A program made the position numbers and the translations under genes. Below the pieces are notes generated by a model, which was given only the letters and a program-made list of their open reading frames with translations, was not told where the DNA came from and ran no database searches. Source: Candidatus Onthoplasma sp. (GTDB lineage Bacteria; Bacillota; Clostridia; Christensenellales; UBA1242). From it: a stretch of DNA of 43,981 nt. Positions within the stretch are counted from its first letter, which is position 1; each line of letters starts with the position of its first letter. This document shows, one piece after another, positions 18,134 through 21,781 of this stretch. The DNA is taken from assembly GCA_050874685.1 (NCBI GenBank), contig JBNMLD010000003.1, positions 1 through 43,981 of the forward strand, in the 5' to 3' direction.

Positions 18134-21100
18134 AGACTCGTCAAATGCGGTTGCATTGACATCATTTTCGTAACTCTTTTGAATATCATCAAATTCAAGA
18201 GTGATATCTTCAAGAGCTTGTTTATTAACTGGTTCAACTGCAGTAACTTCTTCGCCTTCTTCACTGACTTCGTTAATTGTAAGTTCGTGATTATCAGCTG
18301 TCAATATCTTAACGTCCAAGCACAAACCTTGCATTTCTTTAACCAAAACTTTAAATGATTCTGGCATACCAGGTTCTGGGATTGGTTCGCCTTTTACAAT
18401 TGCCTCATAGGTCTTGATACGACCTTCAACGTCATCAGATTTAATTGTAAGCATTTCTTGCAACAATCTTGATGCACCGTATGCTTCCAATGCCCAAACT
18501 TCCATTTCACCAAAACGTTGACCACCAAGTTGGCTACGTCCGCCAAGAGGTTGTTGTGTAATAAGTGCATAAGTACCAATGCCACGTGCGTGGATTTTAT
18601 CATCAACCATGTGGTCAAGTTTTAACATATACATTACACCAACTGTTGTTTTGTTTTCAAATGGCAAGCCTGTACGTCCATCGTAAAGTTGTGTTTTGCC
18701 ATCTTCAGGCAAATTATTTTCACGAAGCAAAGCTTTAATATCTTCTTCTGTTGCGCCATCAAATGCTGGTGTTGCAACTTTCCAGTCAAGATGTTTTGCA
18801 GCCCAACCCAAGTGAACTTCCAACAATTGGCTCAAATTCATACGTGATGGGATACCCAATGGGTTAAGCAAAATATCAACTGTTTCGCCATTTGGCATAT
18901 AAGGCATATCACATTCTGGAAGAACAACTGATACAACACCTTTGTTACCATAACGACCTGCAAGTTTATCACCAACTTGAAGCACACGTTTTTGTGCGAT
19001 GTAAACTTTAACACACATATTTACGCCAGCATCAAGTTCATCTTTATTTTTACGTGACAAGATTTCAACACCAACAACAACACCTTCTTCGCCATGTTTA
19101 ACTTTCAAAGATGTGTTTTTAACTTCTTTTGTCTTTTCACCAAAGATTGCTTTCAAAAGTCTTTCTTCTGGTGTTAAGTCTGTTTCGCCTTTTGGTGTTA
19201 CTTTACCAACCAAGATATCGCCTGGGCGAACTTCAGTACCGATACGAACAATACCATTTTCATCCAAATTTTTCAAAGCATCTTCGCCAACACCTGCGAT
19301 ATCACGAGTGATTTCTTCATCGCCAAGTTTTGTTGTACGAGCTTCTGTTTTAACTTGTTGAATACTGATTGATGTATAAGCATCTTCACGAACTATACGT
19401 TGGTTAATCAAAATAGCATCTTCGAAGTTGTAACCTTCCCAGTTCATGAATGCAACTGTCATGTTCTTGCCAAGTGCAACTTCGCCTTTATCTGTTGATG
19501 CACCATCTGCAAGAACATCGCCGGCTTTAACCTTTTCACCTTTCTTAACAATTGGTTTTTGGTTGAAGCATGCTTTTTCGTTTGTACGTTCGAATTTACG
19601 AAGTTTGTGGTTTACAATACTGCCGTCTGCATATTCCATTGTGATGTAGTCTGCAGATACATATTTACAAACACCGTCTTGTTCAGCAAGGATAAGTGCT
19701 CCAGAGTCAACAGCAATTTTGTGTTCAACACCTGTACCAACGATAGGACTATCACATTTGATAAGTGGAACAGCTTGACATTGCATGTTTGAACCCATCA
19801 ATGCACGGTTACCTGGGCTGTGTTCAACAAACGGAATAAGGTTTGCACCAATAGACAAACATTGTTTTGGGCTCAATTCGATTAAGTCAACCATTGAACT
19901 GTCAACACGTTCAGCTTGTCCATTGTAACGGCATTCAATAATGCCAGTTTTTAAAGTTTTATCATCATTCAAGTCAATTGTTGCTGGTGCGATATAGTGT
20001 CCACGTTCTTCATCAGCCATTAAGAATACGATATCGTCAGTAACTTTTCTTGTTTTAGGGTCAATTTTTCTAAATGGAGTTTCAATAAATCCATATTTAT
20101 TTACACGTGCGTACGCAGCGATAGATGTCATCAAACCAATAGGTTGACCTTCTGGTGTTTCAACCAAACAGATACGACCATAATGGCTTGGGTTAATATC
20201 ACGCACTTCAACTGTTGCACGTTCTTTTTTAACACCGCCTGGGCCGAATGAGCTCAAACGACGTTTATGTCTTAAACTTGCAGCTGGGTTGATTTGGTCC
20301 ATCAATGCTGAAAGTTGGCTTGTTGCCATAAATTCTTTAAACACTTTGTTGATATGACGAGCATTTACGATTTGGCTTGGTGTGATATCAGTCAAATCAC
20401 GGCTTTGCAAACTTTCACGCACTTGTGCTTGAAGTTTTGTCATACCACGACGGAATTCATCACGAAGCAATTCGCCACATGTTGCAACACGACGCATTGA
20501 CAAGTTATCAATTTCGTCAGTTTCGCCCAAACCGTCAATCAAGTTCAAATGATAACTGATTGTAGCAACCATATCGTCCAATGTTACTTGGAAATCTTCA
20601 AGTTTATGAGCATTTTCTTTGATTGCTTGTTTTAAACCTTCTTCATCGCCCTTATGTGCTTTCATGATTTCTTGAAGCAAAGGAAGATAAACAAGTTCTG
20701 TTATACCAAATTCTGCTGGGTCAAGTTTTGCATACGCTTTAAGGTCAACACGTTGGTTACCAACAACACGCACAACTTTATCTTCAAGCATAACATCAAC
20801 TGAATTGATACCTGCGTTTTGGATTGCTACTGCTGTATCATGGTCAATAAATTCGCCTTGACTTACAAACAATTTTTTGCCAAGTTTGATATCTGTTGCT
20901 GCAATTTGGTCTGTAATACGGTTTGCAAGTGACAATTTTTTGTTCACTTTGAAACGACCAACTTTTTCAAGATTGTAATGTTGTTGATTGAAGAAACGGT
21001 CGTTAATATATGACAATGTATTTTCAGGGTTTGGAATTTCGCCTGGACGAGTACGTCTGCCAAATTCAATAAGAGCATCTTCTTGTGTGATTTGAGGTTC

Positions 21101-21781
21101 TTTTTCCAAAGTGTTGACAATAAATGGGTGGTGACCATAGATTTCAAGCAATTCTTCGTTTGTGTAGCCAAAGCATTTAAGCAATACACCAGCACTCATT
21201 TTAAACTTACGTTCAACGATAACACGAAGGGTGTCGCCTGTTACTTGTTCTGTTTGAACCCACATACCATAACTTGGTTGAATTGCACCATTATAGTCCA
21301 TACGACCATATTTATTGATTTCGCCACCAAATACAACACCTGGAGATTTAATCAATTGGTTAAGAACAACCCTTTCAACACCATTACAGATAAAGCCTGC
21401 ATCTTTGCTCATGTAAGGAATATCGCCCATGAATACTTCTTGGTCCATGATTTGACCTGTTTCCTTAACAAGCAAACGAACGTTGACTTTAAGTGGAACT
21501 GTGTAGCTCATTTGTTTAACTTTGCATTCGTTCCATGAATACTTTGGTGTGCGGTCGATAGAATAGCCTAAAAAAGACAACTCGGCTTTGTTCGAGTAGT
21601 CTATGATAGGGTTGTATTCGTTCAACACCTCACCAATGCCCTCATTTAAGAATCTTTCATAACTCTCTTTTGCAATGCTTAACAAATCAGGCATAACATA
21701 AGGGACTTCTTTTTTGGCAAAACTCATACGTTCAGCTTTGCCTTGTTTTAGTTTTTTGATGTTCAGTGTGTTTGAATTCAT
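18107..21781 (-). CDS. rpoB: DNA-directed RNA polymerase beta subunit
   Basis: [53 protein letters not shown]. Confidence 0.99.
   Translation of the reverse strand: [1224 protein letters not shown]

Follow-up and report, generated by a model that had tools for sequence, protein, structure and literature searches.

The rpoB gene of the window, the 43,981-nucleotide stretch of contig JBNMLD010000003.1 of Candidatus Onthoplasma sp. analysed here, encodes the sole RNA polymerase beta subunit of this organism and carries a clade-fixed, vertically inherited change at rifampicin-resistance positions. The interpretation that we favour, with a probability of about 0.55, is that the single RNA polymerase of the family UBA1242 was retuned stepwise around an intact catalytic centre, with poor rifamycin binding as a probable by-product. 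It is ranked ahead of inhibitor-driven selection and of plain drift. The changes are fixed in the clade, affect a single-copy gene, are concentrated in RNA polymerase over other core proteins and are under purifying selection. Two Candidatus Onthoplasma records have been placed in UBA1242, order Christensenellales, a family whose members, gut bacteria with small genomes, do not synthesise nucleotides, amino acids or lipids and probably depend on partners (PMC12306168).

Substitutions in the RNA polymerase

The beta-subunit gene matches TIGR02013 at 1397 bits (cut-off 801) and is the only such locus found by profile search of its own genome, a metagenome assembly of 81 contigs (0.92 Mb, 93.75% complete); near-complete relatives gave one full-length rpoB match each. 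It is followed by rpoC in the order rpoB-rpoC. The beta catalytic residues E565, R678, E813, D814, K1065, R1069, K1073, R1106, H1237 and K1242 are all retained, as are most of the switch-region positions examined. With a single copy beside rpoC and intact active-centre residues, the gene is, judging by its sequence, a functional housekeeping bacterial rpoB. A duplicated resistant gene of the rpoB2 or rpoB(R) type is excluded by the single rpoB locus of the genome.

Residue numbers are those of E. coli MG1655 RpoB. The first-pass annotation of this DNA had listed the substitutions V146L, Q513A, F514L, L533F, R540K, G544T, F545V and R687C, with D516, H526 and S531 kept; alignment to the E. coli protein bore out every one of these, numbering included, and R529 and A543 are retained as well. 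That list was incomplete: S147N, S508T, E523S, T525R, A532S, H551N, N568P and I572M are also present, and are absent or rare in 63 outgroup sequences (other Christensenellales), along with N518I, L521A, S522A, I524L, I530L, P567Q and N573T, which are common or variable in the order. The background of the order accounts for S522A, I524L, I530L, P567Q and G544T. Residues Q513, F514, T525, A532, L533, R540, N568, I572 and R687 are unchanged in all 63 outgroup sequences.

The 38-residue rifampicin site defined by Yang et al. (PMC10550828) contains 14 changes (Q513A, F514L, N518I, L521A, S522A, E523S, I524L, T525R, I530L, A532S, L533F, P567Q, N568P and I572M), against 4-8 in the 63 other Christensenellales and fewer than five in most species. 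Over E. coli positions 501-580 the window protein is 59% identical to a Christensenellales reference, compared with 85-96% for 142 of the 143 other genomes of the phylum that gave a match, the remaining one being frameshifted; every genome of that comparison set is at least 1.4 Mb, so that it consists of lineages other than the reduced ones. The genes and their remodelled regions, including rifampicin-resistance (Rif) clusters and the edge of the core recognition element (CRE) pocket, are as follows.

18107..21781, minus strand: rpoB, sole RNA polymerase beta subunit, 1224 amino acids (translation and TIGR02013 match)
14344..17916, minus strand: rpoC, beta′ subunit, 1190 amino acids, NADFDGD motif intact
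21347..21373, minus strand: Rif cluster N and its neighbour (E. coli 143-151), with V146L, S147N and R151K
20405..20518, minus strand: beta 443-480, CRE-pocket edge and the following helix, with H447N, N450M, R454A, S455T, V456C, N462D, Q463E, R470K and R478S
20234..20332, minus strand: Rif cluster I (505-537), with F506M, G507A, S508T, Q513A, F514L, E523S, T525R, A532S and L533F plus order-typical changes; D516, H526, R529 and S531 kept
20189..20233, minus strand: fork loop 2 (538-552), with L538V, R540K, F545V and H551N; A543 and E546 kept, G544T order-typical
20120..20167, minus strand: D-loop and Rif cluster II (560-575), with P560L, I561V, P567Q, N568P and I572M
19769..19831, minus strand: link region and Rif cluster III (670-690), with D674S, D675P (a salinamide-resistance position) and R687C
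18950..18952, minus strand: beta H1070Y in the GRHGNKG motif; all 50 other genus sequences have Y here, and all 63 outgroup sequences H
15628..15804, minus strand: beta′ F-loop and bridge-helix N-terminus (724-782), with R738K, R744I, L746N, P750A, F773Y, S775A, H777R, A779S and G782Q
15163..15168, minus strand: beta′ trigger loop, with T931V and M932L
21362-21364, 20306-20308, 20246-20248 and 19778-19780, minus strand: codons of V146L, Q513A, L533F and R687C, respectively

Residue H447 is assigned to the CRE pocket in PMC9254596. The arginine of beta′ H777R is found in 86 of 86 other family sequences.

Distribution within UBA1242 and history of position 526

RpoB of the window was aligned with 50 genus-level, 77 other family and 34 outgroup full-length sequences (identical sequences merged; nine of 172, shorter than 1000 amino acids, removed), and 29 outgroup sequences were added later (of 30, one with a wrong reading frame being left out), for totals of 51 in the genus, 128 in the family and 63 in the outgroup. 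A homologue 99.4% identical to the window protein and the 50 genus-level sequences bear the same or a closely related set of residues: L146 (50/50), R525 (51/51), M572 (48/51) and C687 (47/51) are fixed or nearly so in the genus, and most members have A513 (40/51) and F533 (39/51). Position 526 is histidine in 29 genus sequences and asparagine in 22, and across the family 79 of 128 sequences have 526N or 526Q, while position 531 is serine in 117 and threonine in 11. Not one of the 128 UBA1242 sequences retains all of Q513, D516, H526, S531, L533 and I572, as all 63 other Christensenellales do. An acquired clinical resistance allele, with one or two changes on a sensitive background, is ruled out by 14 changes in 38 residues throughout the genus.

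An RpoB tree from which the pocket columns were left out agrees with a separate tree of ribosomal proteins and SecY (3641 columns), in which the Shimodaira-Hasegawa-like approximate likelihood ratio test gave 99.5, 99.4 and 100 on three enclosing nodes and 76.6 on a fourth. Because the residues are nearly fixed in the genus and the two trees agree, the change is attributed to vertical inheritance. On both trees the His526 clade that includes the window is nested among Gln526 and Asn526 taxa, and position 513 in this clade is P, I or A, later S, G or D, and Q again in two. From these tip states, the His526 of the window would most simply be a reversion that accompanied the change of Gln513.

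In a sister genus, Q513P is fixed in three sequences; PMC9717584 gives it as a classical resistance substitution.

Concentration of change in RNA polymerase

Columns identical in E. coli and 13 matched outgroup genomes were taken as invariant, and a second set of such columns was drawn from 20 outgroup genomes. With the 13-genome set, the window has changed 82 of 400 invariant columns of RpoB (20.5%) and 47 of 425 of RpoC (11%), against 16 of 237 of EF-G and 7 of 202 of GyrB, an excess with p=1e-11 for RpoB versus EF-G and GyrB together and p=0.002 for RpoC. With the 20-genome set, the counts are 64 of 355 for RpoB, 48 of 806 for ribosomal proteins, 2 of 58 for SecY and 7 of 56 for RpoA. Taken together, GyrB, EF-G and the ribosomal proteins have changed 3.5-7% of their invariant columns. 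Outgroup sequences that were held out have changed about 1% of invariant columns in both RpoB and ribosomal proteins. Root-to-tip distances of the family and of the others are 0.95 and 0.43 on the ribosomal-protein tree and 1.00 and 0.50 on the RpoB tree; as branch lengths are approximately doubled on both trees, the excess of RNA polymerase lies in its invariant core and not in its general rate. The regions affected are the hybrid channel, fork loop 2, beta 443-480, the link region, the beta′ F-loop and start of the bridge helix, and the trigger loop; of the 16 invariant columns in beta′ 701-750, 8 have changed.

The new state is maintained by purifying selection and is not decaying: the ratio of non-synonymous to synonymous substitution rates (dN/dS) is 0.03-0.12 in 11 of 12 pairs, the other pair being saturated, and comparison of the five closest species shows 0-1 non-synonymous and 8-15 synonymous differences in the pocket.

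The first-pass annotation had framed the changes as a matter of drug sites. The pocket is indeed changed, but as part of an enzyme-wide change: 8 of its 29 invariant columns differ in the window versus 72 of 372 in the rest of RpoB (p=0.33), and alternative definitions of the pocket give 14 of 48 versus 66 of 353 (p=0.12) and 4 of 11 versus 76 of 390 (p=0.24). A general drift towards resistance in every drug target is ruled out by the quinolone region of GyrA, which keeps S83 and D87, and by ribosomal protein S12, which keeps K43.

Two observations concern the ribosome. S12 (rpsL of the same genome) has proline at E. coli Lys88, a streptomycin-resistance position, as do six of 12 family sequences aligned, and arginine is found there in two family and two of 13 outgroup sequences. 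In the S10-spc cluster, L16 (7/49), L4 (5/32), S10 (5/30) and L22 (3/21) have changed more of their invariant columns than other ribosomal proteins; of these four, L4 and L22 form part of the exit-tunnel wall.

Predicted sensitivity to rifamycins and other inhibitors

The enzyme is predicted to have reduced sensitivity to rifamycins, which its residues make likely. The intrinsic insensitivity proposed by the first-pass annotation is thus plausible, but the direct support that was found lies in T525R and I572M, the residues of the window with resistance data in E. coli, both of which it missed. T525R is among the E. coli mutants isolated by rifampicin selection in PMC4926192, and 525R rose in rifampicin in the screen of Yang et al. 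(cited in PMC12337354). At 516, 526 and 572 almost any substitution confers high-level resistance (PMC10550828), and PMC7073797 describes 533 and 572 as drug contacts with high resistance fitness, at which bulkier side chains resist more. Positions 513, 533, 146 and 687 are known for resistance, as the annotation had stated, but a full-text, whole-word literature search found no paper that pairs Q513A, L533F, V146L or R687C with rpoB. The loss of Q513 would remove a side-chain contact with the drug, and R687C would remove a basic one. With L533F, I572M and V146L the wall against which the drug packs would become bulkier, at its face or behind it, and T525R would place a long charged side chain beside H526. 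The contact roles of 533 and 572 are those given in PMC7073797; those of 513, 146, 525 and 687 are general background.

A pocket that has been rewritten and still binds rifampicin, because D516, H526, R529 and S531 remain and changes at 514 and 521 raise sensitivity enough to offset the rest, is possible though on the improbable side, and would be compatible with any evolutionary cause. It draws on observations that weigh against poor rifamycin binding as a by-product. The four polar contacts just named are the main ones; in addition, hypersensitive E. coli mutants are known at 514, 521 and 525, all changed here (PMC10550828), I572M alone is resistant only at 10 ug/ml, a low level, in PMC7073797, the minimal inhibitory concentration for H526Q/I572M is a modest 8 in PMC9717584, epistasis can leave a known resistance residue without effect (PMC12337354), and there is the negative literature search. 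Against retained binding stand the selection of T525R by rifampicin and the changes at 146 and 687. Four of the 12 classical contacts (513, 514, 533 and 572) have also changed together. Since D516, H526, R529 and S531 remain, a raised half-maximal inhibitory concentration is more likely than no binding.

Substitution R529K, listed as conferring high-level rifampicin resistance (PMC10550828), was observed in 33 of 63 Christensenellales outside UBA1242 and in 34 of 128 family sequences. Because it is present there and named as resistant, several gut families with larger genomes may also be rifampicin-insensitive.

A streptolydigin site, which had been proposed for fork loop 2, fared poorly. Within beta 543-546, the range of streptolydigin resistance, A543 and E546 are kept and G544T is ordinary in the order (S in 37, T in 19 and G in 6 of 63 outgroup sequences, hence S or T in 56), so that only F545V is unusual (F in 57 of 63) and a coordinated change of the site is rejected. 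Salinamide is as good a candidate drug, to go by the residues, since four of the five positions named for high-level resistance in PMC4029172 have changed: beta D675P and beta′ R738K, A779S and G782Q.

Possible causes

In E. coli, elongation rate, pausing and the stability of promoter complexes depend on the surfaces that changed here: the hybrid channel on its RNA side, fork loop 2, the CRE-pocket edge, the bridge-helix cap and the base of the trigger loop. A lineage without Rho and de novo nucleotide synthesis, evolving about twice as fast as others, may have reset these surfaces stepwise while compensating changes accumulated. His526 would have given way to Gln or Asn early in the family and then, most simply, have come back in the clade with the altered Gln513. 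How fast the enzyme runs and how much nucleotide it drains depend on pocket residues, 524L acting fast and 567Q being proposed as slow and suited to nucleotide limitation (PMC10550828). Substitutions of beta′ P750 and F773 and of beta P560 (with T563I) make E. coli RNA polymerase catalyse faster and ignore pauses (PMC3959191), and H447P alters pausing and H551P lowers arrays of stalled complexes (PMC9254596). The positions of these E. coli variants (beta′ F773V and P750L, RpoB5101, rpo* H447P and H551P) are changed in the window also (beta′ 750, 773 and 777; beta 560, 447 and 551), but the residues differ (P750A, F773Y, H777R, P560L, H447N and H551N), are natural and occur in combination, and the E. 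coli phenotypes are not directly transferable.

Rho was not found in any of 16 family genomes, versus its presence in 254 of 285 others, and purF and pyrB were not found in any of 12 family genomes, versus 18 and 21 of 24 others that have them. Their loss would loosen or shift constraints on pausing, speed and nucleotide drain. Several results count against such triggers, and so against retuning as we describe it. Loss of Rho as the sole cause is rejected because 16 Rho-less outgroup genomes, whose status was read from absence among the matches of an order-wide search, have the same pocket as 13 Rho-bearing kin, and nucleotide auxotrophy as the sole cause because three outgroup genomes without purF and pyrB keep a near-canonical RpoB; outgroup genomes of these kinds, one of which lacks all three genes, have changed 0.3-4.3% of invariant RpoB columns. 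Loss of a further factor among those searched for is rejected too: NusG, NusA, GreA, an Mfd-sized protein with an RNA polymerase-interacting domain, Rel, MutS, omega and several sigma factors were all found, though omega in the genome of the window is a weak match (20.5 bits, under the cut-off). A separate CarD-sized match was present only in the outgroup genome, one of five genomes searched. Within Christensenellales, Rho appears to have been lost repeatedly, not being found in the UBA1242 genomes, apparently in one other family and in parts of three more; one genome gave a weak Rho-like match of 74 bits.

Long-term selection by rifamycin-like or other natural inhibitors of RNA polymerase could have driven the pocket changes, the family keeping at least one resistance-type residue throughout as H526Q/N handed over to Q513X/T525R/L533F/I572M. 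We consider this unlikely, although part of the evidence for it also tells against retuning. Only two of 128 family sequences keep even 513, 516, 526 and 531, compared with 63 of 63 in the outgroup; random column sets match this pattern in 2.2% of draws and the pattern of six sites never all kept by any family member in 2.6%. The six classical sites average 10.3 parsimony steps versus 4.5 at other invariant sites (p=0.002), an excess that leaves room for drug-driven selection, but the set was chosen after the alignment had been seen and kin are not independent. H526N, in 22 of 51 genus sequences, takes eight parsimony steps, and the salinamide positions have changed too. A site at which resistance arises is, however, necessarily one where change is tolerated, and it would be the first to vary whenever selection relaxed. 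Beta 443-480 changes as frequently as the rifampicin sites (8.5 parsimony steps per invariant site versus 4.4, p=0.01), the pocket is not enriched by its share of columns changed (p=0.12-0.33), gut Christensenellales of other families retain the canonical six residues, and an RNA polymerase inhibitor in the gut niche is hypothetical.

Relaxed selection in a small, fast-evolving, partner-dependent genome, in which mildly harmful changes drifted in and were then compensated with nothing tuned, is similarly doubtful. Family branches are about twice as long genome-wide and many different residues occupy each changed site, as drift would have it, but change in invariant columns was 3-6 times rarer in EF-G, GyrB, SecY and ribosomal proteins than in RpoB, some derived states hold without exception across deep branches (beta′ R777 in 86/86, beta R525 in 51/51), present-day purifying selection is strong and MutS is present. 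An assembly error, pseudogene, paralogue or recent clinical allele, for which the metagenomic origin of the 81 contigs might speak, has negligible probability and is refuted by the single intact locus beside rpoC, the alignment, the fact that 50 other members of the genus, sampled from many hosts, have the same or a closely related set, the need of several changes for at least two base changes, and dN/dS far below 1.

It is improbable that UBA1242 RNA polymerase escaped rifamycins, salinamides and CBR-type inhibitors at once, with resistance unbroken while residues were swapped (H526Q/N for Q513X/T525R/L533F/I572M, His526 returning), and that its pausing and its contacts with the hybrid were adjusted to a way of life without Rho and dependent on scavenged nucleotides.

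Comparison with known rifamycin resistance

Natural rpoB-based rifamycin resistance has been described in 8% of 18,127 species (PMC12337354), and the window would be a further case of this kind with a new residue set, one that has neither the 526N/Q nor the 531N hallmark and would act like those types. The 526N/526Q lineages (Mollicutes, Erysipelotrichales and Bifidobacteriales; PMC12337354, PMC10550828) resemble UBA1242 in the clade-fixed change of a sole rpoB, and their residues are those of the 79 family sequences counted above, but the window keeps H526 and S531 and alters 513, 525, 533, 572, 146 and 687 instead. The 531N lineages (Spirochaetia and some actinomycetes) and the producer Amycolatopsis rifamycinica, with 522D and 531N, likewise have an inherited change of the rpoB target site that is predicted or shown to lower rifamycin binding (PMC12337354), whereas the window has S531 and all 128 family sequences have S or T; rifamycin production by the organism of the window was not in evidence, though no search was aimed at it. 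The second rpoB copies of Nocardia, Nonomuraea and Actinomadura also combine several resistance-type changes in one beta subunit (PMC12337354), but the enzyme of the window is single-copy and housekeeping. Mollicutes also share with UBA1242 a small-genome, host-associated lifestyle.

The survey of PMC12337354, the largest of its kind, discarded sequences at a distance above 35. The edit distance of the window from E. coli over 501-600 is 46, and all 50 other genus sequences and 54 of the 77 other family sequences would also fail this filter, which would make the remodelled RNA polymerase of UBA1242 invisible to current surveys. A literature search, with subscription journals largely outside its coverage, found no report linking UBA1242, Onthoplasma or vadinBB60 to rpoB or rifamycins.

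Neighbouring genes

The genes rplJ-rplL are not upstream of rpoBC; none of the upstream open reading frames (ORFs) 22128-22547, 22628-23023 and 22993-24072 matches Pfam, and the overlap between the second and third looks like that of a single gene split in two (region 21782-24072). Other features, all on the minus strand, are as follows.

6956-10759 and 12055-13602: ORFs of 1267 and 515 amino acids with N-terminal hydrophobic stretches and no Pfam match, probable surface proteins
11642-11911: 89-amino-acid ORF, weakly similar to HicB-like antitoxins (E 2e-4, below cut-off)
31327-33619: pair of neighbouring TMEM164-family membrane proteins

Implications

The direct clinical weight of the trait is low because it is chromosomal and vertically inherited in a commensal group of low metabolism. 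If the prediction is true, a widespread uncultured family of the human and animal gut would be spared by rifaximin and rifampicin, and screens for 526 and 531 variants would miss the residue set of the window. The 128 diverged natural versions of the enzyme, including the apparent return of His526, map combinations that a working RNA polymerase tolerates, and UBA1242 would offer a natural test of the long-standing question of why the rifampicin pocket stays conserved though laboratory mutants grow well.

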